Origin: an uncultured Candidatus Rokubacteria bacterium
GTDB taxonomy: Bacteria > Methylomirabilota > Methylomirabilia > Rokubacteriales > CSP1-6
Length of the DNA stretch: 64,000 bases
Reading direction: 5' to 3'
NCBI GenBank assembly: GCA_963771355.1
Contig: CAVYTA010000004.1
Coordinates: 192,001-256,000 of the forward strand
Positions 32,135 through 61,489 of this stretch are shown here, piece after piece (position 1 is the stretch's first letter; each line of letters begins with the position of its first letter). The position numbers and the translations under genes are program-made. Below the pieces are notes generated by a model that did not search any database, was not told where the DNA came from, and saw nothing but the letters and a program-made list of their open reading frames with translations.

Positions 32135-34377
32135 ATGATGACCGCGGGCGGCGAAATTCGCCACGATCTCGTGCTGGTGGGGGGCGGTCATACCCATGTC
32201 CAGGTGCTGCGGGCCTGGGCCATGCGCCCCGTGCCGGGGGTCCGGCTGACCGTGGTGGTGGATTGGCCCGAGGCCGTCTACTCGGGGATGGTGCCCGGCT
32301 TCGTGGCCGGCCAGTACCGGCGTGAAGACCTCGAGATCGACGTCCGCCCGCTGGCCCTCCGGGCCGGAGCGCGCTTCATCGTGACCCCGGCGGTGGGCCT
32401 GGACCCGCGCGAGCGGCTCATTCACCTGGCCGGCCGGCCCCCGCTGCGCTATGACACGGCCGCCTTCGACGTGGGCTCGACGGTGGCGGGCCTCGCGCTG
32501 CCCGGCGTGCGCGAGCACGCGCTGGCCTCGCGGCCCATCGGGCGCTTCGTGGAGCACGTCGAGGCCCTCGTCGCGCGGGCGCGCGAGCGCGGGCGCTGCC
32601 GGCTGGTGGCGGTGGGCGCGGGCGCGGGCGGCGTGGAGCTGGCCTTCGCCTTCCGGGCGCGGCTCGAGCGGGAGGGCGTGCGCGAGGCCTCCGTGCTGCT
32701 GCTGGAGTCGGGCCCGCGCGTGCTGGCCGGCTATCCCGCCGGCACTGCGCGCCGGGTGGAGGCCAATGCCCGCGCGCGCGGCATCGAGATCCGGCTGGGC
32801 GCGCGTGTGGCCGAAGCGCGCGCGTCGGAGCTCGTGCTGGCGGACGGTCAGGTCGTCCCGTTCGACGCGCTGGTGTGGGTGACGGGAGCGGCGAGCCTGC
32901 CGCTCTTCCACGGGGCGGGCGTGGCGCTCGACGAGCGCGGCTTCGTGCGCGTGCGCCGGACGCTCCAGCTCCTGGAGCACGAGGACATCTTCGCGGTCGG
33001 CGATTGCGCGAGCCTCGAGGGCGCGACGGATCTGGCCAAGGCCGGAGTCTACGCCGTGCGCGAGGGGCCCGTCCTCACCGCCAATCTCCGCGCCCGCCTC
33101 ATGGGGCAGCCGCTGGAACCCTATCGCCCCCAGCGCGATTTCCTGTCGCTGCTCAACCTGGGGGACGGACGCGCCATCGGCAGCAAGTGGGGCGTGAGCT
33201 TCGAGGGTCGCTGGGTGTTCCGATTGAAGGACTGGATCGACCGGCGCTTCATGGCGCGCTTCCAGGTGCTCGCGGCCGACGGCGCGCTCGCCCCCGAGTT
33301 CGCGCCTCTGCCCGCGATGCCTGGCGCCGAGGTGGTCTGCGGCGGCTGCGCGGCCAAGGTGGGCGAGTCCACCCTCAGCCGCGCGCTGGAGCGACTGGGC
33401 GTGGCGAGCGATCCCAGCGTGGTGCTGGGCCTGGGCGTGCCCGACGACGTCGCCGCGGTGGCCACCGAGCGCGGCGAGATCGTGGTGTCGAGCGTGGACG
33501 GGTTCCGCGCCTTCACCGACGATCCCTATCTCGTCGGCCGCGTGGCCGCGGTGAACGCCGCCAGCGACCTGTGGGCGAAGGGGGCCACGCCCCGCTGGGC
33601 GCTGGCCTCGGTGGAGATCCCGGACCTCGAGCCCGCGCGCGCGGAGGAGACCTTGTATCAGACGCTGGCGGGCGCGCGCGCCGCGCTGGACGCGGACGGC
33701 ATCACGCTCGTGGGCGGGCACACCACCAGCGGCGCCGCGCTCCACGTGGGCTTCGCGGTGCACGGAACCGCGCCCTCCGCCGACGCGCTGATGCGCAAGG
33801 GCGGCGTCTCGCCCGGCGAGCGGCTCATCCTCACCAAGCCGCTCGGCACGGGCGTGCTCTTCTTCGCCGACATGCGCGGCCGCGCGCGGGGCGAGTGGAT
33901 GGAGGCCGCGATCGCGTCCATGGTGCGCAGCAATGCCGCCGCCGCGCGCGTGGCCCGGGCGCTGGGCGCCACCGCCTGCACGGACGTGAGCGGCTTCGGC
34001 CTGGCGGGCCACCTGGGTGAGATGCTCCGCGCCAGCAAGTGCGCGGCGATCCTGGATCTGGCCGCCCTGCCGCTCCTGCCCGGCGCCGGCGCCCTGCTGG
34101 CCCGCGGCGACCGCAGCACCTTCCACCCGGAGAACGCAAAATCGCGACGCGCGCTCCGTATAGACGCGGGCGCGCAAGCCCATCCGGCGCTGGACATCCT
34201 CTTCGACCCGCAGACCTCGGGCGGGCTTCTCTTCGCGGTGCCCGCCGAGCGCGCGGAGGCGGCGCTGGCCGCGCTGCGGGCCGCCGGCGATGGCGCGACG
34301 CCGCCCTGATCGGCGAGGTCACGCCGCCGCGCGGCGATCAGGCGCTGTTCGAGGTGGTGGCGCGCTCTACTTCGTAG
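32135..34377 (+). CDS. selD: Pyridine nucleotide-disulfide oxidoreductase-like domain fused to selenide,water dikinase SelD; apparent frameshift near 34295
   Basis: LVLVGGGH.H, YSGM.PG, KDWIDRRFM, then CGGCAAK, DD.A, GGHT, LTKPLGTG, TDVSGFGL.GHL.EM, DPQTSGGLL; frame stops at 34309 and the tail AALIGEV continues in another frame to 34377. Confidence 0.88.
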
Positions 34378-47147: not shown

Positions 47148-48179
47148 ATGCGGATCGGCATCATCGGCGCGGGCGCCATCGGCAGCGTGGTGGGCGGGCT
47201 CCTCACCAAGGCGGGCAACGACGTGACCCTGGCCGATCAGTGGCCGGAGCACGTCGAGCAGATGCGCACCCACGGCCTGCGCCTCTCCGGCACCTGCGGC
47301 GACCATCTGATTCCCGTGAACGCCATCCACATCCACGAGCTGCAGAAGATCAGCGAGCCCTTCGAGGCGGCCTTCGTGGCGGTGAAGTCCTACGACACCG
47401 AGTGGGCCACCGCGCTCGCCATCCAGTACCTCCGCCGGCCCGACGGCGTGGTGGTGGACTTCCAGAACGGCATCAACGACCACCGCGTGGCCGCGGTGGC
47501 GGGCAAGGAGCGCACGCTCGGCTGCGTCATCACCATCGGCGCGGGCATGTACGAGCCCGGGCACGCCATGCGCACCGACAATGGCAGCGTCGGCTTCAAG
47601 ATCGGTGAGCTGGACGGCAAGGACACCCCGCGCGCGCAGCACCTGGCCAAAGTGCTCAGCGCGGTGGCCGCCACCAAGGTGACGACCAACCTCTTCGGCG
47701 AGCGCTGGTCCAAGCTGGCCGTCAACTGCATGGCCAATCCGATCGCGGGGCTGTCCGGCCTGGGCTCGGCGGAGGTGCGCAGCGAGCCTGTCCCCAGCCG
47801 CATCGCCATCTTCGTGGCCGCGGAGGCCATCCGCGTGGGCCGCGCCGCCGGCTACGAGGTGGAGCCCATCTTCGGCGTCGCCGCCCAGCGCTTCGTGGAC
47901 GCCGCCGCGGGGCACGGCTACGCCGAGCTGGCCGCGGACATGGCGGCCAGCGCGAAGTCCTTCTCCGGCGGCCGCCCGTCCCTCTTGCAGGACGTGATGC
48001 GCGGGCGGCGCACCGAGATCCAGTACCTGAACGGCTACGTCGCGGACGAGGGGCGGCGCCTCGGCGTGCCCACGCCGGTGAACGACGTGGTCGTCAAGAC
48101 CGTGCTCTCCTTCAAGGTGGGCGCGCTCAAGCCGGATCCCAAGAACCTGGAGCCCATCGCCGCCGTCCTGCCGCGCTGA
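47148..48179 (+). CDS. 2-dehydropantoate 2-reductase family protein
   Basis: GAGAIG, VKSYD, QNG, W.KL..N, SLLQD...GRRTE...NG. Confidence 0.88.
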   Translation: MRIGIIGAGAIGSVVGGLLTKAGNDVTLADQWPEHVEQMRTHGLRLSGTCGDHLIPVNAIHIHELQKISEPFEAAFVAVKSYDTEWATALAIQYLRRPDGVVVDFQNGINDHRVAAVAGKERTLGCVITIGAGMYEPGHAMRTDNGSVGFKIGELDGKDTPRAQHLAKVLSAVAATKVTTNLFGERWSKLAVNCMANPIAGLSGLGSAEVRSEPVPSRIAIFVAAEAIRVGRAAGYEVEPIFGVAAQRFVDAAAGHGYAELAADMAASAKSFSGGRPSLLQDVMRGRRTEIQYLNGYVADEGRRLGVPTPVNDVVVKTVLSFKVGALKPDPKNLEPIAAVLPR

Positions 48180-48203: not shown

Positions 48204-48497
48204 ATGTGCCGCAACATCAAGACGCTGCACAATTTCAAGCCGCCGGCCACGGATGAGGAGATCCGCGCGTCGTCGCTTCAGTTCGTCCGGAAGCTGAGCG
48301 GCTTCGCGCGGCCGTCCAAGGCCAACGAGGCCGCCTTTGCCCAGGGGGTGGACGAGGTGACACGGGCGGCCCGGACCCTGCTCGGCGCGCTGGTCACTAA
48401 CTCCCCGCCGCGCGATCGTGAGGTTGAAGCGTCGAAGGCCCGCGCGAGAACGGCGGGCCGCTTTCCCGCGCGGGAGTCGGGAGCGAGTTCCGACTGA
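48204..48497 (+). CDS. DUF2277 family protein
   Basis: MCRNIKTL.NF.PPAT.EEI.A..LQFVRK.SG. Confidence 0.88.
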   Translation: MCRNIKTLHNFKPPATDEEIRASSLQFVRKLSGFARPSKANEAAFAQGVDEVTRAARTLLGALVTNSPPRDREVEASKARARTAGRFPARESGASSD

Positions 48498-48569
48498 CGC
48501 CGCAGCACTAGCAAGGGAACGCCATGAGGGCACGTCCTGCCGCGCTGACGGGCGTGTCTCCAGGGAGAG

Positions 48570-48637
48570 ATCTACACCCCGTCCTCAACCGCGGCCCCGC
48601 CGGCGTCCGCAGCCCCGCCGACCGCATAGGCCTCTGA
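48570..48637 (+). pseudogene. intI: Integron integrase C-terminal remnant
   Basis: ATC TAC ACC CC GTC CTC AAC CGC GGC CCC GCC GGC GTC CGC AGC CCC GCC GAC CGC ATA GGC CTC TGA = IYT[H, 1 nt short]VLNRGPAGVRSPADRIGL*, matching the IntI tail IYTHVLNRG..GV.SP.D; the rest of the gene is absent. Confidence 0.85.
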
Positions 48638-48799
48638 CCCTTCCCCCATGCCCGCAGTCTCCGCCGCGCTACACTGGTCCGCCTATCCCCGCCCGCCCCA
48701 CCCCCAGAGTCCAGCCAACTACGCACCACCTGGGCTATCCTTGAAGATAAGGAGACCACCCCAGCGATGCTACACAGCCCCCCTCGCTCGGTCCCCCGC

Positions 48800-48830
48800 G
48801 CTACACAGACCAAGATAATTCTAGTTGGGC
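48800..48830 (+). other. attI: Putative attI site
   Basis: AAGATAA-TTCTA-GTTGGGC; core GTTGGGC (48824-48830) is the exact reverse complement of the first attC inverse core GCCCAAC, with no attC hairpin upstream. Confidence 0.72.
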
Positions 48831-48879
48831 GGGCTATGAGCAAGGCTGGCGATGGTCTCGTGCACGTAAGGCAGCGTAT

Positions 48880-49854
48880 ATGACAGTTTGTCGGCTGGTC
48901 GTCGCGTTGTTGCTGCTTCTCCTCCCGTGTTCCGCCGGAGCCCAGCAAGCCACGAGGATTCCACGCATTGGCGTTCTCAGCCCGGCGCCGATCGGGGCGG
49001 CCTCGGCGTCCCCGTTCTCCGCCCTTCGGGACAAGCTGCGTGAGCTTGGTTACATCGAGGGCCAGAATATAGCGCTGGAGTTCCGCCTCGCAGATGGTCA
49101 CCTCAACCGGTTGCCCGAACTCGCCGCAGATCTCGTCCGCCTACGAGTCGACGTCATCGTGACCGACGGTGGGGATTCCGTGGCTCGTGTCGCTGCGGCT
49201 GCCACCAAGACCATTCCGATCGTGATGGGGACCTCGACTGATCCCGTGGCGAGTGGCCTGGTGGCCAGCATCGCCCAGCCAGGCGGCAACGTCACCGGAT
49301 TCATGCTCCCGTACGCGGACCTCGCAGGAAGACGGTTGCAGCTCCTCAAGGAGATGGTCCCAACCGTCAGCCGCGTAGCTGTCTTGTGGGATGCGGACTC
49401 CGGCGAGCCCCAGCTCCGTGCCGCGGCTGCCGCAGCACCGGCGCTCGGCCTCCACCTCGAGTCCCTGCCGGTGCGCGACCGCGCAGATCTCGACACCGCG
49501 TTCGAAAAGGCCCGTCGCCAGGGCGCCGGGGCCCTGCTGCAGTTGGCCTCGCGGCGGCTGTCCGACAACAGGAAGGCGATCGCCGAACGCGTGCTCAGAT
49601 ATCGACTTCCCGGTGTGTTCGAGCTCGGATTCGCCGAAACTGGTGTCCTCGCCTCCTATGGACCGAGGACCGCGGACAACTTCAGCCGGGCCGCCCTCTA
49701 CGTCGACAGGATCCTGAAGGGCGCGCGCCCCGGCGACCTTCCGGTGCAGTATCCCCTCACGTACTACCTGGAGATCAATCTCCGAACCGCCAAATCTCTC
49801 GGGCTCACGATGCCGCCCTCGGTACTGCTGCAGGCAACGCGGGTCATCGAGTGA
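48880..49854 (+). CDS. Cassette 1: ABC transporter substrate-binding protein (ABC_sub_bind type)
   Basis: Signal peptide, RIG.L, GY.EG.N...E.R.A.G, DPV..GLVAS...PGGN.TG, IL.GA.P.DLPV, INL.TAK.LGL. Confidence 0.9.
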   Translation: MTVCRLVVALLLLLLPCSAGAQQATRIPRIGVLSPAPIGAASASPFSALRDKLRELGYIEGQNIALEFRLADGHLNRLPELAADLVRLRVDVIVTDGGDSVARVAAAATKTIPIVMGTSTDPVASGLVASIAQPGGNVTGFMLPYADLAGRRLQLLKEMVPTVSRVAVLWDADSGEPQLRAAAAAAPALGLHLESLPVRDRADLDTAFEKARRQGAGALLQLASRRLSDNRKAIAERVLRYRLPGVFELGFAETGVLASYGPRTADNFSRAALYVDRILKGARPGDLPVQYPLTYYLEINLRTAKSLGLTMPPSVLLQATRVIE

Positions 49855-49897
49855 CGCCGCCGTGAAGGGTGTGCCGAGCCAATGCGACGAATCAGCC

Positions 49898-49955
49898 GCC
49901 CAACTCCTGCATTCAGCCGACGCGCTATCGCGCGCGGCTGATGCGGGCGTTGGAC
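49898..49955 (+). repeat. attC: attC site 1
   Basis: GCCCAAC...GCA(T)TCAGCCG(A)CGCG / CGCGCGGCTGATGC...GTTGGAC, two extrahelical bases. Confidence 0.92.
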
Positions 49956-49976
49956 GACAACAATAGGTAAACAACG

Positions 49977-50603
49977 TTGAAGCTCCCACCCTTGCCAATC
50001 TTGTCCGACCTGGACGGCACGCTGATTGATTCGAAGGCCTCTGTGGTTGCCGCCTTCCGGTGGTGGGCGGAATCGAAAGGTCTTCCTGCCGATACCGCCT
50101 CGCGCATTCCGTTTGGAAGAACATCAACGGACGCGGCGGCGGTACTTGCGCCACACCTAGATCACATCAAGGAAGGCGCCCTACTTGATCAACGGCAGGA
50201 GCAAGACACCGCCGGCGTCATTGCGCTGGACGGCGCAAGCGAACTCCTTTCATCGCACGACAACTTGGCCATCGTTACGTCCTGTCCACGCCGTCTTGCG
50301 GAAGCTCGGCTGAAAGCAGCGAAGCTACCGACGCCTCGCTTCCTCATCACGCCGGAATGCTGGTCTCGCGGCAAGCCTGACCCTGAGCCCTACTTGCGAG
50401 GAGCGCAGGCGCTTGGTACTGCACCTGAGGCGTGCATCGTGCTGGAGGATGCGCCGTCCGGGGTTGAATCTGGAGTCAGGGCAGGAATGCGAGTCATAGG
50501 AATACTTACAACTCACACGGCGCAGCAACTCTCGGCCGCAACGTGCCTCATCAAGTCCCTGCGTGAGCTTCCAGATGCTTTGCGGTCCGTAAGCAATCAG
50601 TGA
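49977..50603 (+). CDS. Cassette: HAD family hydrolase
   Basis: DLDGTL.DS, GKPDPEPY, EDAPSG. Confidence 0.9.
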   Translation: MKLPPLPILSDLDGTLIDSKASVVAAFRWWAESKGLPADTASRIPFGRTSTDAAAVLAPHLDHIKEGALLDQRQEQDTAGVIALDGASELLSSHDNLAIVTSCPRRLAEARLKAAKLPTPRFLITPECWSRGKPDPEPYLRGAQALGTAPEACIVLEDAPSGVESGVRAGMRVIGILTTHTAQQLSAATCLIKSLRELPDALRSVSNQ

Positions 50604-50610
50604 AGTTGTC

Positions 50611-50706
50611 GTCCAACCCATCGCTGCAGCGGACGGTCCCGCCTTCGGCGGTCCTTCCCTCCGCGCGCTTCGCGCGCGTCGGCGCCGCTGAGCTTAGTCG
50701 TTAGGC
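50611..50706 (+). repeat. attC: attC site 2
   Basis: GTCCAAC...GCT(G)CAGCGG / CCGCTGAGC...GTTAGGC. Confidence 0.92.
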
Positions 50707-50709
50707 GTC

Positions 50710-51009
50710 ATGACGCCAATTACTCCAGCAGTCTCGCAGAAGATCGATGCACTCTTTCTGCCAGAGAGCAGAGACGCAGCGCGGCGACTGCTCGCGGAGC
50801 GGTGCGGGACTGACCTTCCCCTTTCGACTCACATGGGACCCGATCCTTCCGGCTTTGACCGCGTTCGCTTTGCAGTCCTGAAGCTGTCACGCGGGGACTT
50901 GGAGCGGCTGCGGCGAGAGATAGAGGGCGCGCACTGCGACTGGCGTGACACTTTGATGGCGGCTGGGTTCGGCGAGGACATTCATGCACATTTGCAATGG
51001 AACCCTTGA
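50710..51009 (+). CDS. Cassette: hypothetical protein
   Basis: ORF fills the space between attC2 and attC3; R.RFA.LKLS.G, DWRD.L.AAGF. Confidence 0.8.
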   Translation: MTPITPAVSQKIDALFLPESRDAARRLLAERCGTDLPLSTHMGPDPSGFDRVRFAVLKLSRGDLERLRREIEGAHCDWRDTLMAAGFGEDIHAHLQWNP

Positions 51010-51010
51010 T

Positions 51011-51102
51011 GCCTAACCATGCGCTCAGCGAACCCGGCCATCGCGCTCTGGTGGCAATCCACGCCTCCCGTGGGCCGGGTCGCTGAGCTTGGGTCGTTAG
51101 GC
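51011..51102 (+). repeat. attC: attC site 3
   Basis: GCCTAAC...GCTCAGCGA(A)CCCGGCC / GGCCGGGTCGCTGAGC...GTTAGGC. Confidence 0.92.
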
Positions 51103-51122
51103 GCAACAACGAGGAGACTTGC

Positions 51123-51527
51123 ATGTCGCAGGAAGAGAACAAAGCGATCGTGCGGCGATTCTTCGAGGAAGCGTGGAATCAGCAGAACTTGAACGTCATC
51201 GATGAGATCTTCGCTCCGACCGTAGTGTTCAACGGGCAGCCGATCACTCGCGACGCGCTCAAGCAGGCTCTCGCAGGTCGCCGTACCGCGTTCCCCGATA
51301 TCCAGGTTACGGTTGACGATCAGATCGCCGAGGGCGAGAAGGTGTCGACACGCCGGACGTGGCAAGCCACTCACCGGGGTCAGTATCGCGGGATTGCCCC
51401 GACTGGTAAGCAGGTGAAATGGACCCAGATCAGTGTCGTTCGATTTTCCCAGGGCCGGATCGTGGAGGATTGGGCCGTCGCCGACGAGTTGGGCATACTG
51501 CAGCAGCTGGGAGCGTTGCCCACGTGA
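51123..51527 (+). CDS. Cassette: SnoaL-like ester cyclase
   Basis: ENKAIVRRF.EE.WN, AFPD, IAEG.KV, GI.PTGK, QQLG; GAGGAG RBS. Confidence 0.88.
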   Translation: MSQEENKAIVRRFFEEAWNQQNLNVIDEIFAPTVVFNGQPITRDALKQALAGRRTAFPDIQVTVDDQIAEGEKVSTRRTWQATHRGQYRGIAPTGKQVKWTQISVVRFSQGRIVEDWAVADELGILQQLGALPT

Positions 51528-51559
51528 CGAGTGCTTGCGAAGGACGCGGCAGCCTCGGT

Positions 51560-51630
51560 GTCCAACACAGCAGTGCAGCGGACGGCGCGCTCACGTTGCT
51601 CGCCCGCCGCCGCTGACCGCAGCGTTAGGC
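51560..51630 (+). repeat. attC: attC site 4
   Basis: GTCCAAC...GT(G)CAGCGG(A)CGGCG / CGCCGCCGCTGAC...GTTAGGC. Confidence 0.92.
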
Positions 51631-51652
51631 CGACTCGCCCGATTTCGCAGAC

Positions 51653-51904
51653 TTGATGAGCACTCAAGAGGGGCTCCGTGTCATTGCCACGCTCATCGGC
51701 GGTGGCTTCCTCGCATACGCTGCTATAGCCGTCTTTAGAGGAACGCTGTATGACGTGGACGACGGGCATGTCGACCGGGCTACACGGCCAGTCACTTTCT
51801 GGCTGTTAGTGTTCGGCATGACCCTCCTCGGGTTAGTTATCCTGGGTGTCGGCTGGGAGTGGCCGATCGTGGGCACCATAGTCCGGACGATGGGCACCTC
51901 CTGA
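51653..51904 (+). CDS. Cassette: small two-TM membrane protein
   Basis: Two hydrophobic helices, R...P..FW motif; bounded by attC4 and attC5. Confidence 0.72.
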   Translation: MMSTQEGLRVIATLIGGGFLAYAAIAVFRGTLYDVDDGHVDRATRPVTFWLLVFGMTLLGLVILGVGWEWPIVGTIVRTMGTS

Positions 51905-51940
51905 CCAAGGTTGTCCATGCCACAACCTGAAGCGCATCGT

Positions 51941-52042
51941 GCCTAACAACGTGGGTGCAGAGGACACCGGGCGCGCCACGGTTTGGCGAATCTTCTGGGA
52001 TGCGGCGCCGCCCCCGGCGCCTCTGACCTACCTTCGTTAGAC
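51941..52042 (+). repeat. attC: attC site 5
   Basis: GCCTAAC...GGT(G)CAGAGG / CCTCTGACC...GTTAGAC. Confidence 0.9.
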
Positions 52043-52059
52043 GGATAGAGGAAGAGAGA

Positions 52060-52626
52060 GTGTGGCGACCGAGTAGACTGGGCAGCATCATCGCGGAACG
52101 TCGGCTGAGGCTAGTGCGGCGCCGGAAACGGGCCCGCACTGTCCGCGTCAGATTCGGTCGCCCGCTCAGGTCCCCACAAGCCGAACGTAAGGATCCGTGG
52201 TGGTGCCCCGTCGAAATCGCCGGCTTGGGCAGGCGTAGGCTGAGGTCGATTGCCGGTGAAGATTCCCTCCAAGCGCTTGTCCTGGCGTTCCAGTTCGTCA
52301 CTCTCACTCTCCCTGCGGAGGCAGAGCGTGCTGGTGGCCGTATCGAATGGCTGGGCGAACGTGAGAGTCTGGTGTTTGCACACACGCGCTTGCTCAACAT
52401 GGCGAGCGACGCCTTAGAGAATCTCGCGAGTGGGCTCACGGAGGCGGTCGGCATTCTGGAGAATGGCGGAGCCCGTCGTCCCGGCGCGAGGGCGGTTGTT
52501 CGCCGGTTGAGGGCGCTCATTGCGTCAGGTGGCTACACCTCCGATCATCGGCGTGTCTCGGCACCGTCCAACAGCGCGTTGGAGGCGGACGCGCCGCGAC
52601 GGCGCTCCACTCAACGCGGACGTTAA
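52060..52626 (+). CDS. Cassette: hypothetical protein (DUF6968-like); reads through attC6
   Basis: IAER.L, W.CP..I.G, GEDSLQAL.LA. Confidence 0.68.
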   Translation: MWRPSRLGSIIAERRLRLVRRRKRARTVRVRFGRPLRSPQAERKDPWWCPVEIAGLGRRRLRSIAGEDSLQALVLAFQFVTLTLPAEAERAGGRIEWLGERESLVFAHTRLLNMASDALENLASGLTEAVGILENGGARRPGARAVVRRLRALIASGGYTSDHRRVSAPSNSALEADAPRRRSTQRGR

Positions 52627-52628
52627 GC
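52566..52628 (+). repeat. attC: attC site 6
   Basis: GTCCAAC...GTT(G)GAG..GCGCCG / CGGCGC..CTCAAC...GTTAAGC. Confidence 0.85.
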
Positions 52629-52646
52629 GTCAATCTGGATCGAGGT

Positions 52647-53315
52647 GTGAAGATGACACGAATACGAGTCGAGAGTTTTGCCATCTCACTTGACGGATAC
52701 GGAGCTGGTCCGAATCAAGACATCAATAATCCGCTTGGTGCGGGCGGGACTGAGTTGCACCAATGGGCATTTCCGACGCGCACATTCCAGCGGAAACTCT
52801 TTGGCGCCGACAGCGGCGCTACGGGGATCAATGACGACTTCGCCGCACGTGGCTTCAGGAACGTCGGTGCATGGATTCTCGGAAGGAACATGTTCGGACC
52901 GGTTCGCGGAGCCTGGCCGGACATGAACTGGAAAGGTTGGTGGGGGGACAATCCGCCATACCATGTTCCAGTCTTCGTCCTGACTCATCACGCCCGCCCG
53001 CCTATTCAGATGGAAGGCGATACCACGTTCCATTTCGTCACGGACGGCATTCACGAAGCGCTGGATCGGGCGCGGAAGGCAGCCAACGGGATGGATGTGC
53101 GCATTGGCGGTGGGCCCCACACCATACAGCAGTACCTTCGTGCTGGCCTCGTGGATGAGTTGCATATCGCTATCGCGCCCATCCTGCTAGGTGGAGGAGA
53201 GCGACTGTTCGAGGGAGTCGACTTGCGATCTCTTGGATACAGCTGCGTCGAGCACGTGCCCTCAGAGAAGGCAACCCATGTTGTGCTCCGGCGCCGGGGT
53301 CAGAGTGACGCCTAA
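52647..53315 (+). CDS. Cassette: dihydrofolate reductase/RibD C-terminal family protein
   Basis: SLDGY.AGP, GRNMF, PVFVLTH, GLVDEL.I...P..LG.GERLF; stop lies in the GCCTAAC inverse core. Confidence 0.88.
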   Translation: MKMTRIRVESFAISLDGYGAGPNQDINNPLGAGGTELHQWAFPTRTFQRKLFGADSGATGINDDFAARGFRNVGAWILGRNMFGPVRGAWPDMNWKGWWGDNPPYHVPVFVLTHHARPPIQMEGDTTFHFVTDGIHEALDRARKAANGMDVRIGGGPHTIQQYLRAGLVDELHIAIAPILLGGGERLFEGVDLRSLGYSCVEHVPSEKATHVVLRRRGQSDA

Positions 53316-53371
53316 CAACCGGTTGCACGGAGGGCGCTCCGCGCCGCCGCTGAGTGGGGGGTCGGTGAGGC
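53310..53371 (+). repeat. attC: attC site 7 (degenerate, core GTGAGGC)
   Basis: GCCTAAC intact, partial stem, GTT mutated to GTG. Confidence 0.7.
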
Positions 53372-53394
53372 GAGAAGGAACGGCGAGAGGAGTC

Positions 53395-54384
53395 GTGTCA
53401 GGGTCCTGGGTCGGGCCCTTCGTTCTCGCCCTTTTGATGCTGGCCGTCCCCCTCGCCGTAGGAGCGCAGCCGACGGGGAAGGTGGCCCGCATCGGCATCT
53501 TCGGGGACAAGGCGGCGGACGCCTCCGAGAAGCATCTCTGGCAGGTCTTCCGCGACGGCCTGCGCGAGCACGGATGGTCCGAGGGCGCCAACCTCGCCAT
53601 CGAATACCGGTGGGCCGAGGGTAATGCCGCGCGGCTTCCGGAGCTGGCGGCGCAGCTGGTCCGGCTCAAGCCGGATGTGATCGTGACGCGGGGCTCGCTG
53701 TTCACCGGCGCCCTGAAGGCCGCGACATCCTCCATTCCCATCGTGTTCGTCGGCCACGCGGATCCTGTGGAGACCGGCCACGTCGCGAGCCTCGCCAGGC
53801 CGGGCGGAAACATCACCGGGATGGCGGTGCTCCAGACCGAGCTCGGCCCCAAGGGCCTAGAGCTCCTGCACGCCGTCGTCCCCTCGGCCACGCGTGTCGC
53901 CGTGCTGTGGCACCAGGGCACTCCGTCAGCCGTGCCCGGGCTCAAGGCGCTGGAGGGTCCAGCGCGAACGCTCGGCCTCAAGCTGCAGCCCGTCGGGGCG
54001 CGGAGCGCCGGTGAGCTGGAAAGCGCCTTCGCGACCATGGCCAAAGCTGGCGCGGAAGCCGCGCTGGTCTTCAACACCGTCCCGTTCAACAACGCGAGGG
54101 GGCGCATCGTGGAGCTAGCCGGCGCGCATCGGCTGCCGACGATGTACCAGGGAAGGCTCTTCATAGAGGCCGGCGGTCTGATGAGCTACTACCCGAAACA
54201 CGAGGACTTCTGGCGGCGTTCCGCCGCGTACGCGGACAAGATCCTCAGGGGCGCGAAGCCGGCCGACCTCCCGGTCGAGCAGCCGACGAAGTTCGAGCTG
54301 ATCATCAATCTCAAGACCGCCAAAGCGCTTGGCCTCACGATCCCGCAACCGGTGTTGGCTCGCGCCGATGAGGTCATCGAATGA
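53395..54384 (+). CDS. Cassette slot: second ABC transporter substrate-binding protein
   Basis: Signal peptide, PGGNITG, DKIL.GAKPADLPVEQPTKFEL.INLKTAKALGLTIP..ADEVIE; start estimated. Confidence 0.9.
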   Translation: MSGSWVGPFVLALLMLAVPLAVGAQPTGKVARIGIFGDKAADASEKHLWQVFRDGLREHGWSEGANLAIEYRWAEGNAARLPELAAQLVRLKPDVIVTRGSLFTGALKAATSSIPIVFVGHADPVETGHVASLARPGGNITGMAVLQTELGPKGLELLHAVVPSATRVAVLWHQGTPSAVPGLKALEGPARTLGLKLQPVGARSAGELESAFATMAKAGAEAALVFNTVPFNNARGRIVELAGAHRLPTMYQGRLFIEAGGLMSYYPKHEDFWRRSAAYADKILRGAKPADLPVEQPTKFELIINLKTAKALGLTIPQPVLARADEVIE

Positions 54385-54432
54385 GCGCGACCGATAAGCA
54401 TGCGATCCCAGCTTGCGTCGACATATTCGGGC

Positions 54433-54505
54433 GTCGAACTTCCCGCTGCAGCGGACCGGAGGCTCGCGTTGCTCGCCCTCCGGCCGCTGAGCGCGAGCGT
54501 TAGCC
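54433..54505 (+). repeat. attC: attC site 8
   Basis: GTCGAAC...GCT(G)CAGCGG(A)CCGGAGG / CCTCCGGCCGCTGAGC...GTTAGCC. Confidence 0.88.
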
Positions 54506-54510
54506 AGCGC

Positions 54511-54837
54511 ATGGAATCATCGAACACGCTCTTCGCCGTCGTTCGCGTGCGTGGCGCGGCCTGGGAGCCGGCCCGTCAAATGCGCGAACAGCGCGCTTGG
54601 CAAGAACATGCTGCGTTCATGAATGCCCTCGCGGCCAACCGATTCATCGTCTTAGGTGGCCCGCTCGGCGACGGGCAACGCGTGCTCCTCATTGTCGAGT
54701 CAAACTCCGAGGCCACGGTTTGCAGTCGCCTTGCACTCGATCCTTGGTCAACAATGGACCTCTTGCGCATTGAGAGCGTCCATCCGTGGAGAGTTCTTCT
54801 TGACCGCAATTCCACGAATCAGCCGCATGGTGGCTAA
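54511..54837 (+). CDS. Cassette: YciI-like protein
   Basis: W.EHAAFM..L...GGPL, L..DPW; ATG 5 nt after attC8, stop inside GGCTAAC. Confidence 0.78.
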   Translation: MESSNTLFAVVRVRGAAWEPARQMREQRAWQEHAAFMNALAANRFIVLGGPLGDGQRVLLIVESNSEATVCSRLALDPWSTMDLLRIESVHPWRVLLDRNSTNQPHGG

Positions 54838-54910
54838 CCCTTCGTTACACCCGACCTCGCTACGGCTGGCTTCGCCAACCTCCGCGAGCGGGTGAACTCA
54901 AACGTTGGGT
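54832..54910 (+). repeat. attC: attC site 9
   Basis: GGCTAAC...GTT(A)CACCCG..CTCGC / GCGAGCGGGTGAAC...GTTGGGT. Confidence 0.9.
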
Positions 54911-54963
54911 CTCAACCGTCAGGAGCGTCGCGCTGCGACCAATCTGCGACTGAAAGGCGCCGA

Positions 54964-55566
54964 TTGCCGAAAGCAAAAACTCTCCTGCTGATCGCACTCT
55001 GCCTCGCGCTCGCCGGCGCGGCACGCGCGGAGGACTGGTCGGCGTGGCAGCGCGCCCACGATCCGGCGACGCGCACGCGCTTCATTCCCGTGGAACTCTG
55101 GACCGGCGCGCCTTGGGACGGCACGCAGGAGATCCGCATGGCGCCCGCGGCGCTCGAGTTCGGGCGGCAGGGAGACAAGAGCATCAAGGGGCCGACGACC
55201 TGGAACGGTATCCAGGTCTACGAGCGCCTGAACCGCGACAAGCTCCAGCTCTTCGCCATCCGCGACGACCGGACGGGCCTCGGTCGCGTTTTCGACTCGC
55301 GCTATCCGCAGCTCGGCTGCCGCGGCGAGGTGAAATTTCCGCTCGGCCGCTGGAAGCAGGGCGAGGTGCGCGAGTACCAGCTCGACTGCGCGCGCGGTAA
55401 GCGCCCGCTCAGAGTGGCGATCGAGGAGATCGACTTCGTCTACGACGGCGTGCCACACTCGCTGCGCTTCCACTGGCTCTTCATGGAAGGGCGCGGCCGC
55501 GGCACCGATATGCGCTACGTGTATAGCCCGCTGCGCGGGCTGGTCGACGTGCAGGGGAACGAGTAG
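54964..55566 (+). CDS. Cassette: exported hypothetical protein
   Basis: Signal peptide ending ARA-ED, two Cys; start estimated (TTG). Confidence 0.65.
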   Translation: MPKAKTLLLIALCLALAGAARAEDWSAWQRAHDPATRTRFIPVELWTGAPWDGTQEIRMAPAALEFGRQGDKSIKGPTTWNGIQVYERLNRDKLQLFAIRDDRTGLGRVFDSRYPQLGCRGEVKFPLGRWKQGEVREYQLDCARGKRPLRVAIEEIDFVYDGVPHSLRFHWLFMEGRGRGTDMRYVYSPLRGLVDVQGNE

Positions 55567-55586
55567 GCATAGGGGTTCGAAAGTCA

Positions 55587-55675
55587 GCCTAACAACTGAT
55601 TGGAGCGGGCGGCGTTGATGGATGGATGGTCAAGTCGAGATGCTGACAGCGCCGCCGCTGAGTGCAACACTAGGA
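55587..55675 (+). repeat. attC: attC site 10 (degenerate core ACTAGGA)
   Basis: GCCTAAC intact, AGCGG.CGGCG / CGCCGCCGCT stem, GTT lost. Confidence 0.7.
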
Positions 55676-55687
55676 CTCGGAGGAGAA

Positions 55688-56137
55688 ATGGTGATGAGTG
55701 CACAAGGGGTCGTTGTACTGCCGGGACAGGGCTCGGTCTGGAACATATCGCAGGACCGATCGCTCGTGCTCAAGCTCTTGGGCGGAGCGACCGGAGGCAG
55801 CATCATGCTGTTCGAGGAGACCGTTCCCGCAGGGACGAAGAGCTGGTTCCACCTGCATCATGACAGCGACGAGGTAGCCTACGTCCTGAGCGGCGAGATC
55901 ACATTCAAGATTGGCGACGAGGTCACCGCCGGTGGTCCCGGCACCTGCGCCTTCATGCCGCGCGGCGTCCAGCACGCCTGGAAGAACAGCGGCGCGGAAG
56001 CCGGACGGGTGCTGTTCCTCTACACCCCGGCCGCGGCGGGTGGGCTGGTTGAGGAGCAACAGCGGACGCATGAGCGTGCGGGGACCGAGTTGCTCCAGCG
56101 TCACGGCTGGGAGATCGTCGGACCCAATCCGCTCTAA
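55688..56137 (+). CDS. Cassette: cupin domain protein
   Basis: HLH...DE..YVLSG, PRG..HAW.N; GGAGGAG RBS. Confidence 0.88.
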   Translation: MVMSAQGVVVLPGQGSVWNISQDRSLVLKLLGGATGGSIMLFEETVPAGTKSWFHLHHDSDEVAYVLSGEITFKIGDEVTAGGPGTCAFMPRGVQHAWKNSGAEAGRVLFLYTPAAAGGLVEEQQRTHERAGTELLQRHGWEIVGPNPL

Positions 56138-56172
56138 CTGTCTTCAAGAACTTAGCGGAGCGCTGGGATGCC

Positions 56173-56223
56173 GTCTAGCAAGCCGTTAGAGCGGGGCCGG
56201 CCGTCTGCGCCGATCCGTTAGAG
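56173..56223 (+). repeat. attC: Eroded attC remnant
   Basis: GTCTAGC-AAGCC-GTTAGAGCGG...GTTAGAG; right arm largely missing. Confidence 0.5.
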
Positions 56224-56312
56224 CGCAAATCATTCTTCTCAACCCCATCAACACTAGGCTACCTATCAGAGTCATTGCTGCTGCACTATCCCTCTCCACG
56301 GTCGCGTGCGCC

Positions 56313-57368
56313 GTGCCACCTAAGAGAGTGAACCCTGTTGGCCTTTCCTTTGCTGCGTATGAAGACGCTGCGCGCCGCAGCTGGACCGGGCCTCAGGACC
56401 GCCCATTGGCCACGGCGATCTGGTATCCCGCAGCGCCGGGAAGTCGTGAATCTGAATGGCGAGTCGGCATCTTCAACGCCGGGTGGAACGCACAAAAGGC
56501 CCCGCTGTCCGCTGCCACCACCAAACGTCCGTTGGTCGTCCTATCGCACGGAACCGGCGGTGGAGCGGCAGGAATGGCCTGGCTTGCCGAGACCCTCGCG
56601 TCGAATGGGTATATCGTTGCTGCTGTAAATCACCACGGCAACACGGCGGCCGAACCTTCATACCAGCTTGAAGGGTTTATCCTGTGGTGGGAACGGGCGA
56701 GGGATATTTCGGTCCTCATCGACAAGGTGTCGGCCGACCCACAGTTTGGCGCTCACATAGACCCATCTCGAATCGGAGTCGCAGGGTTCTCTCTAGGTGG
56801 GTATACCGCGTTGGCAACGGTTGGCGCCAGGCTCGCGTATCAGCAGTGGAAGAGCTTTTGCGCCAGCCAGCCACTAGAGCCAAACTGCAACTTGCCCCCG
56901 GAAGCTTCCTTCTCTATGGCAAACGTCCAGCGACTTCTCGATCACGATGATCGTGTCAAGGAGGCGGTCAGCCACTCGCACGAGTCATTCCGTGATGCAC
57001 GAGTCAGGGCAGCATTCGCCATTGCCCCGGTGCTCGGGCCGGCCATGACAAGGGCCAGTCTGGCTGAGGTTAAGGCTCCGGTCCGCATCATCGTCGGCTC
57101 GAAGGATGACCAAGCGGCTCCAGACGTCAACGCGAGGCCGATAGCATCTGCCATTCCGTACGCTGAACTCGAGATTATCCCCAACGTCATGCACTATACG
57201 TTCCTCGCCAGATGCAATTTCTTGGGTAAAGTCATGGCGCGCTCGCTCTGCACTGACCCTGACGAGATCGACAGGGAGGAAGTGCACAGAAGGATCAGCG
57301 CCGACGCGCTCAGCTTCTTCAACCGCACACTACGAGGAGAACTAGACGGCAATGAAGCACGCAAATAA
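56313..57368 (+). CDS. Alpha/beta hydrolase (dienelactone hydrolase-like)
   Basis: WYPA, PLVVLSHGTGG, GFSLGG nucleophile elbow, HY.FL..C. Confidence 0.85.
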   Translation: MPPKRVNPVGLSFAAYEDAARRSWTGPQDRPLATAIWYPAAPGSRESEWRVGIFNAGWNAQKAPLSAATTKRPLVVLSHGTGGGAAGMAWLAETLASNGYIVAAVNHHGNTAAEPSYQLEGFILWWERARDISVLIDKVSADPQFGAHIDPSRIGVAGFSLGGYTALATVGARLAYQQWKSFCASQPLEPNCNLPPEASFSMANVQRLLDHDDRVKEAVSHSHESFRDARVRAAFAIAPVLGPAMTRASLAEVKAPVRIIVGSKDDQAAPDVNARPIASAIPYAELEIIPNVMHYTFLARCNFLGKVMARSLCTDPDEIDREEVHRRISADALSFFNRTLRGELDGNEARK

Positions 57369-57951
57369 GCTGGCAGCGGCTACTCTCGCCATCTTGTTGA
57401 TGGTCGCGCCGGGGCTCGCCAGCGACGATTCCAGCGAAGCGTGGGCGGCGCTGGCCAAGGGCGGCCACGTGGCGTTGATTCGGCACGGTAACGCGCCGCC
57501 CGGCTATGGCGGCGACCCGCCCGGCTTCAGGTTCGACGACTGCAAGACGCAACGGAACCTGGATGACGTGGGGCGCGAGCAAGCCAGGGCGCTTGGTGAG
57601 GCATTTCGGAAGCACGGCGTGCGCGTGGACCGGATCGTGTCTTCGCCCATCTGCCGCTGCGTGGAGACGGGGCAGTTGATGGCGGTCGGCTCGGTTGAGA
57701 CTTCGGGGGGCCTCCTGCCTGATATCGGGTCGGGTAGAGCCCGGGTCCTGGAGCTGGAGGAGATGGTGTCTTCGTGGCGGGGACCGGGCACGCTGGTGCT
57801 GGTGACTCACGCGCTGACCGTCGGGCGCCTGACCGGATTCACCCTGGAACAGGCCGAAACGCTCGTGCTTCAACCGACCCCTGAGAAGCTGCCGGCCGGC
57901 CATCTTCCACGGGGGGGACGCTTGGCGGGCAGGATCCCGCCACCCCAATAG
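57352..57951 (+). CDS. Exported histidine phosphatase family protein
   Basis: Signal peptide, LIRHG, C..QRNL, SSP.CRC.ET, LVTH. Confidence 0.85.
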   Translation: MKHANKLAAATLAILLMVAPGLASDDSSEAWAALAKGGHVALIRHGNAPPGYGGDPPGFRFDDCKTQRNLDDVGREQARALGEAFRKHGVRVDRIVSSPICRCVETGQLMAVGSVETSGGLLPDIGSGRARVLELEEMVSSWRGPGTLVLVTHALTVGRLTGFTLEQAETLVLQPTPEKLPAGHLPRGGRLAGRIPPPQ

Positions 57952-58016
57952 GGACGGAGACCCTCGCGCTCGAGCGGACGCGCTTCGCGCGCGACCGGGA
58001 CATTAGAGGGAGCCGG

Positions 58017-58409
58017 ATGAAATACGGCATCGAGGTATTGGGTGAACAGCCGGGCGACGGACCGATCGTCGAACGCCGCGAGTCGTACCGCATCCGCGTG
58101 AAGATGTGGCTGAACCGAGGCGATCTGGTTCGATGGGAGCGTCCCTGGGATTTTCTTACTCAGGCATACCTCGAGGACGATGGCGCCACACTCGTTACCG
58201 ACGTGCGCATGGATCGAGCCTTCCTGATTCCTGGCCTCTTCTACGGGATGGAGGGGATGCGAATCGGGGGCACACGAAAGCTCCGCATTCCGCCCTCGTT
58301 CGCTTTCGGTGAGACCGGGATCCCCGATCGCATCCCGCCGAATGCCGTGATCACAGCGGAGGTATCCGTGCTGGCGAAGGGGACCGCATCAGGCTGCACA
58401 ATCACGTAA
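58017..58409 (+). CDS. FKBP-type peptidyl-prolyl isomerase
   Basis: LIPGL..G.EGMRIGG.RKL.IPP..AFG..G....IPPNA. Confidence 0.85.
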   Translation: MKYGIEVLGEQPGDGPIVERRESYRIRVKMWLNRGDLVRWERPWDFLTQAYLEDDGATLVTDVRMDRAFLIPGLFYGMEGMRIGGTRKLRIPPSFAFGETGIPDRIPPNAVITAEVSVLAKGTASGCTIT

Positions 58410-58507
58410 GGCACGCTGGCGCCACCATGGGCATGGGCTCGAGCAGCGTAGGGTAAACTCAGAGCGATAGCCCATTAAGGGGCCCCTTCAGGAGGAGGAC
58501 AAAGAGA

Positions 58508-58807
58508 ATGCTTCTGGACGTCAAGATTCCGCATGAGACCTTCAACGCTGCAGTCCGGGACGGGAGCGCCGGGGAGAAACTGAAGCGAATTCTGGAGGCT
58601 ACGAAGCCGGAGGCAGTCTACTTCACGGAGCGCGACGGGCACCGTGGCGGGATCCTGATCGTGAATCTGGACGACCCGTCGAAGATTCCGGCGTTGGTGG
58701 AGCCGTGGTTTCTCACCTTCAACGCAGATGTAGAGATCCGCGTGGCGATGACACCGGAGGATCTGGCCCGTGCCGGCCTCGATGCGCTTGGGAAGAAGTG
58801 GGTATAG
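58508..58807 (+). CDS. Small conserved hypothetical protein
   Basis: AGGAGG RBS; KPEAVYF...DG.R, IP...EPWFL.FNA, MTPEDL. Confidence 0.75.
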   Translation: MLLDVKIPHETFNAAVRDGSAGEKLKRILEATKPEAVYFTERDGHRGGILIVNLDDPSKIPALVEPWFLTFNADVEIRVAMTPEDLARAGLDALGKKWV

Positions 58808-58832
58808 GCCCCGATAACTTCGCAGTTCAGCG

Positions 58833-59660
58833 ATGACGGGAAGCGTTCCTCCACGGATCTACTGCATTCCAGCGACGGTGGCGCCGATCGTGGCGGTGTT
58901 CCGGCGCGGGCCGACGAACTGGTCCCACGTGGGTCGCTGGGATCTCGGAGAGAGACGGTACGAGGCCGGCGCGTGGCTCGGTGGACGGATCTTTCCACGA
59001 CGGTCCGATCTCTCCCCCGACGGTCGTTTCCTCTGCTACTTTGCGCATAAGCCCAGCGCCACCTGGGAACACGGGGAGGCGTACGTGGCCTTGTCGAAGG
59101 TCCCCTGGCTCACCGCGCTCCACGCCTTCCGTACCTGTGGCACGTGGACGCGTGGCTACTACTTCACCGAGGCTGACGATGACGAGAACCCAGCGGAGAC
59201 GAACCTTCCGATCCCCTACGGGTTGCGCTCCATTCCGGTGATTCAATTTGCGAACGAACGACGTCGCGGCTGGGAGGAAGCGACGGACTCTCCCCCACGC
59301 GACCCCGGGGACGCATGGGATGAGCGCCGCAACGCCCGCATCCAGAAACGCCAGCCCGGCGGCGACCGGCTACTGTGTGTGGAAAGTCTCGGACGGGCGG
59401 GAGGCGAGTTCGGCGTCGATCAGGCGGTCGACGGCCTGCGTGTCAGCTACTGGCTGGAAGTAAGTGGAGAGATCCAACTCTTGAATCACCTCCAATGGGC
59501 GGACTGGGATCGAGAAGGACACCTGCTGGTCGCCACACGGAGCGGGCAGCTTCAGGTCTGGAAACTCGATGGCGATGGCTCCGAGGTACTGTTCGAAGAA
59601 GACCTGTCTGTCTCCGAGCCGAACCCGATTCCCGCGCCGGCATGGGCCACGCGATGGTAA
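58833..59660 (+). CDS. Hypothetical protein
   Basis: Co-oriented ORF with protein-like composition (RRGP..W, DLSPDG, WADWD). Confidence 0.7.
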   Translation: MTGSVPPRIYCIPATVAPIVAVFRRGPTNWSHVGRWDLGERRYEAGAWLGGRIFPRRSDLSPDGRFLCYFAHKPSATWEHGEAYVALSKVPWLTALHAFRTCGTWTRGYYFTEADDDENPAETNLPIPYGLRSIPVIQFANERRRGWEEATDSPPRDPGDAWDERRNARIQKRQPGGDRLLCVESLGRAGGEFGVDQAVDGLRVSYWLEVSGEIQLLNHLQWADWDREGHLLVATRSGQLQVWKLDGDGSEVLFEEDLSVSEPNPIPAPAWATRW

Positions 59661-59706
59661 GGGGCTGGGACGACGCCCCGTGTTCAGCGGACACACGGCA
59701 ATCGTC

Positions 59707-60369
59707 ATGACCGACCCGGACCGCCTGGCACACACGGCGCGCGTTCTGAGCGCACACGGCCTAACCTTGCCCGAGCATTACGTGATGTGCTCGGCGGGCT
59801 ATCGCGTGACGCTGCCTTCCGAGGCGTTCGTCTCGCACGCGTTCGCAGTCACGGAAGGCGACCCTCGTGGCCACCCGGCGCGTCCAGAGCTGGCGGCGGC
59901 CCTCCGGCGGCTTCAGACACGTGGGCTGATGTCATGCCTGACCGCAGCGGCCCTTCGCGCGGACGCCCGACGGAGGGCCGCCTCCAGGGTTCCGGAGGTA
60001 ATCACCGAATACCGAGTCGGTCACGTCGATTTCACTCCCAAAGGATACGGGGTCCATCGGGAGGTGATTCGAGCCATCCACGGCGACGACTTTCTCGCAC
60101 GGAGCGACGCGGGCTTCAATCTCGATCTGGACGCGGGCCGCTTCGACGTGTATGCCGTGAGCGTGGACGAGTGTCGCCGGCTGATGGACGAGATCCAAGC
60201 CGGGGGCGACGATTACACGGGTGCAGAGTGCACCCGGTTCGTTGGTCGGGACGGGCCGGCCGCGATCGCGGCATGGCGGCCCAATCGCTTCTTTGTGCGC
60301 GAGGCCGGGTATCATGGCGCTCTGCGCTTTATCAGCGATGCCGCCGAGCTGGCCGTTCGGCATAGCTGA
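59707..60369 (+). CDS. Hypothetical protein
   Basis: Co-oriented ORF; ATG 59707 avoids overlap with the upstream gene. Confidence 0.55.
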   Translation: MTDPDRLAHTARVLSAHGLTLPEHYVMCSAGYRVTLPSEAFVSHAFAVTEGDPRGHPARPELAAALRRLQTRGLMSCLTAAALRADARRRAASRVPEVITEYRVGHVDFTPKGYGVHREVIRAIHGDDFLARSDAGFNLDLDAGRFDVYAVSVDECRRLMDEIQAGGDDYTGAECTRFVGRDGPAAIAAWRPNRFFVREAGYHGALRFISDAAELAVRHS

Positions 60370-60430
60370 GCGGAAACGCGGTGGTCGTGGCCCCCGATAC
60401 GGAGCGTCCGATATCAGAGAGGAGGCCCTG

Positions 60431-60580
60431 GTGACACCAGAAAATCACAAGGCGATCGCTCGGCGGTTCTTCGAGGACGTCTGGAACAAGCAAGCGTTAG
60501 AGGCGATCGACGACATCTTCGCTGCGTCTGTGGCGGATGAGCTCAGCATCCTACAGCAGCTCGGCCAGTTGAGCGCATGA
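60431..60580 (+). pseudogene. Internally deleted SnoaL-like ester cyclase, paralogue of 51123-51527
   Basis: MTPENHKAIARRFFEDVWN...DDIFA joined directly to VADELSILQQLG; GAGGAGG RBS. Confidence 0.82.
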
Positions 60581-60602
60581 CCCCCACGCCGAACCGGCGG
60601 AT

Positions 60603-60660
60603 GTCCAACCCCGCAGTCCAGCGGTTTGCGGGCTCGCGCTGCTGGCCATCACACTGAGAG
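60603..60660 (+). repeat. attC: Eroded attC remnant related to attC4
   Basis: GTCCAAC-CCCGC-AGTCCAGCGG...GCTCGCGCTGCT resembles the left arm of 51560; core lost. Confidence 0.6.
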
Positions 60661-60672
60661 AGGAGAATCGCC

Positions 60673-61428
60673 ATGCCGTTCTACGAACGAGGCCCCGTCC
60701 GCATCCACTACCAGGAGGCAGGTTCCGGCTTCCCCCTGCTGCTCATTCCCGGCGGCGGGCTCAATTCAGCCCTATCATCCTGGCAGACCGCCTCGCCCTT
60801 CAACCCGATGGAACGGTACAAGGGCGACTTCCGCTGTATCTGCGCCGACCTGCGCAATGCCAATCCCGGCCAGTCCAGCGGCCCGCTGGAGATCGACCGT
60901 CCCTGGGACGCCTATGCCGACGACCAGCTTGGCCTGATGGACCACCTCGGCATCCGGGAGTTCCTGGTCATGGGCTTCTGCATCGGCGGACCGATGATCC
61001 ATAACCTGATCAAGCGGGCGCCGGAGCGCGTCGTCGCGGCCGCGATGATGCAACCCAGCGGGTCCAGGCCTGAGCTCCCGGACCTGTTCTACCAGAACAA
61101 CATCAAGGGCTGGGGACCCGCGCTGTGCGAGAAGCGCCCCGACGTCACGATGGCCATGGTCCATGACTTCCTCACCAGCATGTACACCAACCGCGCCGAC
61201 TTCGTTTTCACCGTGTCGCGCGATTTCGTGCGCTCGATCCAGACGCCGCTGCTGATCGCGCCGGACGACGTGCCCGCGCACCCGTACAAGGTCGCGATGG
61301 AGGTGGCTAGCCTCGCCCGGAACGCCGAGGTGACCATCTATCCCTGGAAGGATTCGCAGGAGCACATCGACGAGGTCGTGGAGCACGCGCGGCGCTTCCT
61401 CAAGGCGCACGAGCCCGTCAGAGCCTAG
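60673..61428 (+). CDS. Alpha/beta hydrolase fold protein (Cys at nucleophile elbow)
   Basis: G.G.PLLL..GG, D.RN...S.G, GFCIGG, D..HP. Confidence 0.85.
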   Translation: MPFYERGPVRIHYQEAGSGFPLLLIPGGGLNSALSSWQTASPFNPMERYKGDFRCICADLRNANPGQSSGPLEIDRPWDAYADDQLGLMDHLGIREFLVMGFCIGGPMIHNLIKRAPERVVAAAMMQPSGSRPELPDLFYQNNIKGWGPALCEKRPDVTMAMVHDFLTSMYTNRADFVFTVSRDFVRSIQTPLLIAPDDVPAHPYKVAMEVASLARNAEVTIYPWKDSQEHIDEVVEHARRFLKAHEPVRA

Positions 61429-61433
61429 GATTT

Positions 61434-61489
61434 CTCCATCAACGTGGGAGCGGACGCGCTCGGTGCACCGCTGACCGTGGACGTTAAAG
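61434..61489 (+). repeat. attC: Eroded attC remnant
   Basis: GAGCGG..GC / GCACCGCTGAC stem followed by GTTAAAG; inverse core degenerate. Confidence 0.6.

Follow-up and report, generated by a model that had tools for sequence, protein, structure and literature searches.

The last 22 codons of a deleted integron integrase ahead of an attI-like site and cassette array in a Rokubacteria genome with four integrase-less platforms, probably loaded in trans

How does an array of gene cassettes come to stand without an integrase gene, and does it stop exchanging cassettes once that gene is gone? In the passages that treat their origin, PMC4889954 and 10.1101/2022.09.11.507474 present most CALINs, attC clusters without a working intI, as lacking a recognisable intI relic, and their origin as debated. 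The question was raised here by 68 bases in a 64,000-nucleotide stretch of DNA (the window) from an uncultured Candidatus Rokubacteria bacterium. The analysis itself pointed to such a host, likely living in soil: a homologue at 81% bears the Rokubacteria name, the sequencing runs that contain the sequence come from soil and rhizosphere, and a GC content of 70% agrees with this tentative placement. The genome that contains the window (G000, including contigs C6, C7, and C8) was compared with those of the congeners G002, G003, and G006.

The 68 bases (48570..48637, + strand) read ATC TAC ACC, two bases in place of a His codon, GTC CTC AAC and so on to GGC CTC TGA, which amounts to 22 codons and a stop less one base. 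The initial annotation had taken them for the tail of an integron integrase with one base missing in the His codon and proposed a comparison with IntI sequences, and the comparison confirmed this reading. The part past the frame break, VLNRGPAGVRSPADRIGL, was identical at 18 of 18 residues to the end of P0007, a protein of 327 aa that scored 457 bits against the integron-integrase model TIGR02249 (cut-off 265 bits), and the same tail was found on the intact proteins P0007-P0009. When a profile of IntI tails, with tail types taken from 120 homologues, was run against the 111,607 six-frame segments of the genome, the stub ranked first at 49.5 bits and the runner-up reached 15.1 bits. At the nucleotide level, the stub matched the 3' end of intI in G002, which has a full-length gene at this site (84% identity over 141 nt, E 6e-37). 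The stub carries a C-terminal motif, IYT, whose Tyr we take to be the catalytic residue of IntI, followed by an IntI-type tail. The full-length gene with the IntI-specific insertion, of which 22 codons are left here, was present at the same site in G002 and in P0007. A search of the window against Rfam returned no match.

Short-read contigs from three of four runs, representing three studies, crossed the junction without gaps, the differences numbering 0, 1, and 0; the fourth run had no cover there, and one of the three crossing runs may be the source sample. With the junction covered by contigs of three studies, deletion and frameshift alike are real, and the misassembly that the initial annotation wished to have checked is excluded. 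It is therefore hardly credible that assembly collapse or a chance motif explains the stub, for although G000 is a long-contig metagenome assembly with a frame break in a host gene at 1.214 Mb of C6, the junction was unchanged in independent short-read contigs and the profile score stood far above the second. The 68 bases are the last remnant of a deleted integron integrase gene.

The surroundings of the stub are those of an integron. A ketopantoate reductase family gene (47148..48179, +; Pfam ApbA/ApbA_C), syntenic in the congeners, forms the left flank and is followed by a DUF2277 host gene (48204..48497, +; PF10041), past whose stop codon the integron begins, the junction being the same in G002 and G003. 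The spacer between this stop and the stub measures 72 nt (48498..48569, +), in agreement with the distance of about 70 nt given at first. Its last ~20 nt can tentatively be read as half of a box that precedes the intI promoter, with 8 bases identical to the G002 box and a weak matrix score of 9.7; no alternative source for these nucleotides was found. Downstream of the stub lies a leader of about 190 nt (48638..48823, +), conserved in 23 aligned copies, with three GCTACAC boxes (48668, 48769, and 48800) that are likely accessory IntI sites. The leader perhaps also holds the cassette promoter; TATCCT/TATTCT was conserved within it, and a scan of the leader for the sigma-70 consensus found no promoter. 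The attI-like site (48802..48830, +), with its crossover G|TT at 48824/48825, was assigned by comparison only, as the homology of the copies stops at GTT and differing cassettes start thereafter.

The cassette array (48824..61489, +) was delimited by 13 attC-like sites and a shift in GC content, which was 61-67% in the array vs 70-76% upstream. The sites (49898, 50611, 51011, 51560, 51941, 52566, 53310, 54433, 54832, 55587, 56173, 60603, and 61437, all +) were located with a covariance model trained on 11 attC sites from G002 and G003, whose E-values are rough; the 48 kb upstream gave one weak match only. With 13 attC-like sites on one strand, at least two making a CALIN, and no functional intI nearby, the array falls into that class. 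In the window and in G002, intI is co-oriented with the cassettes and attI lies at its 3' end, and this showed the integron to be of the reverse type, with intI pointing to attI; the same orientation was judged by eye at other intact intI loci. Among the cassettes, PF04392 ABC substrate-binding genes (48880-49854 and 53191-54384) occur here and in many arrays of the genus, and integrons may feed the expanded PF04392 family in this genus. In one run, the contig match of cassette 1 started exactly at the crossover base 48824 and was deeper than the platform contig, a hint that cassette 1 is also present in a second context in that sample. Elsewhere in the window, at 34361-34368, both G002 and G003 have 47 extra bases relative to G000.

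The initial annotation further held that the array is a formerly complete integron from which intI was deleted, and suggested a search for relatives with a full gene at this position. Such a relative is G002, in which a full-length intI (327 of 327 residues covered) lies between the same stop codon and attI. As assembled, its frame is broken by three frameshifts; these match the rate of single-base insertions in that assembly, which has 32 across 19 kb of host DNA where G003 has 2 across 16 kb, and the gene is therefore probably intact. The reads over it are a mix of many integrases. At the same site, G003 retained 62 IntI residues in four to five pieces, N-terminal and middle parts included and only the last ten codons at the end, G000 retained the tail only, and no intI was found in G006. 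The deletion in G000 thus removed the promoter and about 304 codons; that in G003 removed different parts. Because the two genomes keep different parts of intI, neither remnant descends from the other and the two deletions were independent. The host genes on both flanks are syntenic, and G000, G002, and G006 have these flanks and a distal hydrolase gene in common. These comparisons supported the view of the array as a once complete integron minus intI. The G002 leader, at 57% identity to that of the window (79% for G003), is much less alike than the G002 host genes at 89%, so the G002 intI may be a later replacement.

In a different history, the copy that reached this place would have comprised no more than a leader-attI module and a short intI tail, and a whole intI would never have stood here in this lineage. 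The leader on C8 of G000 is 84% like that of the window, and because the homology begins at the intI stop codon, copies of the leader alone may occur. However, G003 has the same leader type and retains N-terminal intI pieces at the site, and G002 has the whole gene there, which makes copying of the module quite improbable and largely refutes it for the DUF2277 site. Deletion of intI would have proceeded through ordinary short-homology slippage, and may have been favoured because an active IntI is costly. Self-deletion catalysed by IntI at a secondary site at the breakpoint was also considered; the breakpoints of the remnants differ and it was not supported.

We then have to ask whether this locus stands alone. 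A genome-wide search for an intact intI, as the initial annotation had recommended, found none above the cut-off in G000, which is 99.8% complete, and none of its only three other long tyrosine recombinases matched the IntI insertion region. The genome carries four attI-headed arrays, each with attC sites downstream, the three others being at C8:125033, C6:1214327, and C6:2498449; the array at C6:1214327 retains an intI stub too, but one that derives from the HTFRHSF region. An attI pattern built from these four integrase-less sites and G002, which may favour integrase-less sites, had 11 matches, spread over 6 of 41 genomes that all belong to the genus (6 of its 8 genomes), and none with the reversed pattern as control. 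It also matched 13 metagenome contigs, and had no match in viral contigs that would point to phage carriage. One matching record, L082, is titled with an archaeal genus although its DNA carries the attI of the bacterial lineage, and is likely mislabelled. Upstream regions were scanned for intI at the 11 genome sites, an eroded G003 site, and 9 of the 13 contigs, the other four being too short. These 21 regions, covering 12 sites, yielded one full-length intI, four stubs (each different), and 16 regions without intI, against one spurious match in 21 with the reversed control. The 16 stub-less copies, for which copying of a leader-attI module still stands as an explanation, may never have had intI.

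The genes ahead of the 12 sites include a dehydratase, DUF445, a LuxR regulator, carbonic anhydrase, superoxide dismutase, TauD, and tRNA-Ser. In the family, intI was matched in 66 of 150 genomes vs 1 of 7 in the genus (a tally that includes three unpublished genomes), and 22 upstream flanks fell into 18 groups. With so many sites and flank groups, the platforms have landed at many places. One candidate route is movement of the whole integron as one giant cassette. The DUF445 site is empty in four of five congeners and the insert there ends at an attC about 30 nt ahead of the host promoter, as this route would have it, but the intergenic DNA at the site is too diverged for the junctions to be read.

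Whether sites without a local integrase still take up cassettes can be judged at the dehydratase site, where G000, G003, and contig L093 have a gap-free integrase-less junction in common. G003 and L093, with 98.4% identity in the host gene there, have unrelated sequence in cassette 1 from the GTT of attI to the next GTT, and then rejoin. The five copies of the site, one a near duplicate, hold four different first cassettes with borders exactly at GTT, and three of the four sit behind the one integrase-less junction. Cassettes common to different sites were 93-97% identical: cassette 2 of the window, a HAD hydrolase (49949..50706, +; Pfam), is the first cassette at the attI of another site (L088, 96% over 767 nt), and two more cassette genes of the window recur (93-94%) in the dehydratase-site array of G003. 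At that site, the first cassette of G003 closes with an attC shrunken to about 19 nt (L073:2030-2055). Since near-identical integrase-less copies had cassette 1 swapped exactly at GTT, integrase-less attI sites were likely served in trans by IntI from another locus, a conclusion that comparative sequence suggests. The genomes with swapped cassettes showed no trans-acting intI alongside, G003 being 67% complete and L093 a short contig.

The main alternative is that the first-cassette differences could have come from recombination between strains. In its full form, this alternative describes an integron that is simply dead: loss of intI would have frozen the array immediately, and the differences at orphan sites would predate the losses or reflect such recombination. 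The distal attC sites of the window array decay, and in a contig from another study the first cassette is that of the window, in keeping with an array that is static in this species. Xanthomonas strains with a common intI lesion usually have arrays in common as well, according to the passage of 10.1101/2025.06.18.660453 that cites Gillings 2005. What such freezing does not readily explain is the set of first cassettes bordered by GTT behind a single integrase-less junction, nor the survival of the leader and attI at many sites where intI was erased, and we regard it as unlikely. The reading we prefer is that the intI 3' stub lies ahead of an intact attI and array, forming one of four integrase-less platforms in G000, and that such platforms are probably loaded in trans by an integrase elsewhere. 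While one locus kept intI, its IntI would have served the orphan attI sites; the DUF2277 site would have retained intI until after the split of G000 and G003; and the G000 arrays would now be static unless intI returns, for example via DNA uptake. The initial annotation considered the array frozen unless IntI is supplied in trans. This applies to the present strain, whose genome has no intact intI, but it understates the lineage, in which integrase-less attI sites show cassette turnover.

A promoter box offers a possible link between intI and DNA uptake. Of 25 intact intI genes, 12 are preceded by a GTATC-N8-GACAC-like box; shuffles gave a mean of 3.6 and a maximum of 9. A matrix built from 13 intI boxes and no others gave 88 matches in G000. 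Among the 30 best are sites that precede dprA, recA, and a comM-type gene, as well as two helix-hairpin-helix genes, of which one lies upstream of comEC. The names comM and comEA were assigned from domains and are presumed here. The region upstream of radC had a weak match, and the box, present at recA, was absent at lexA and two uvrA genes. A score of 13 bits or more was reached upstream of dprA in 11 of 26 cases, in none of 26 gene interiors, and in 7 of 600 windows drawn at random. The box, shared by intI loci (L046-L067 and L122-L150) and G000 sites at C6:1136365, C7:366261, C6:2088360, C6:1888580, and C6:2679137, possibly marks an undescribed competence regulon, or it could be a promoter element instead. 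More tentatively still, the reverse integron can be pictured as a nomadic platform that would land behind host genes, shed its integrase, and persist as an attI network served in trans by a rare intI co-induced with DNA-uptake genes (dprA, comEA-comEC, comM, and recA). In the text of PMC8876359 that concerns them, known links between DNA uptake and intI go via SOS and CRP; if the box is a real link, it would tie competence directly to cassette capture.

That the array illustrates how an integrase-less attC cluster can arise, as initially proposed, is right as to the route; it is not the first view of it. Loss of intI is among the origins given by Cury et al. 2016 (PMC4889954), who report intI pseudogenes near 15 of 279 CALINs, likewise attC clusters without a working intI. 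Compared with the CALINs described there, attI was identified and intact here, and four platforms occur in one genome; a domain search would probably miss a stub as short as 22 codons. In the account that Colombi et al. (10.1101/2025.06.18.660453) give of the Xanthomonas ilvD integron, intI was likewise inactivated or deleted more than once, and independently, in a single genus; additional CALINs lie at other loci, and trans mobilisation is mentioned. With CALINs beside intI pseudogenes and intI deletions in Xanthomonas already in print, the inference is correct but not new. That account describes one ancestral locus, whereas the present genus has at least 12 sites, each with its own attI leader, in reversed orientation. 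The reverse arrangement is also on record for some integrons, such as that of Treponema in the inverted integron-integrase group (PMC4889954, where it is mentioned); that is a different lineage, and here there are many platforms per genome. SALINs and CALINs formed by secondary-site insertion, as outlined in 10.1101/2022.09.11.507474, likewise place cassettes away from an integrase, but are described without attI, and the window array has both attI and an intI stub.

Outside the supplements of Colombi et al., we found no literature on integrons in this bacterial group or on genomes with multiple attI sites. What differs from the published cases is the presence of many attI-bearing platforms per genome, together with a sign of turnover without a local integrase. 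The genus presents a graded series, from a whole gene through a mosaic and a 22-codon stub to nothing, which suggests that deletion can quickly erase intI and leave attI in place. Should orphan attI sites remain usable, CALIN counts would hide active capture sites.
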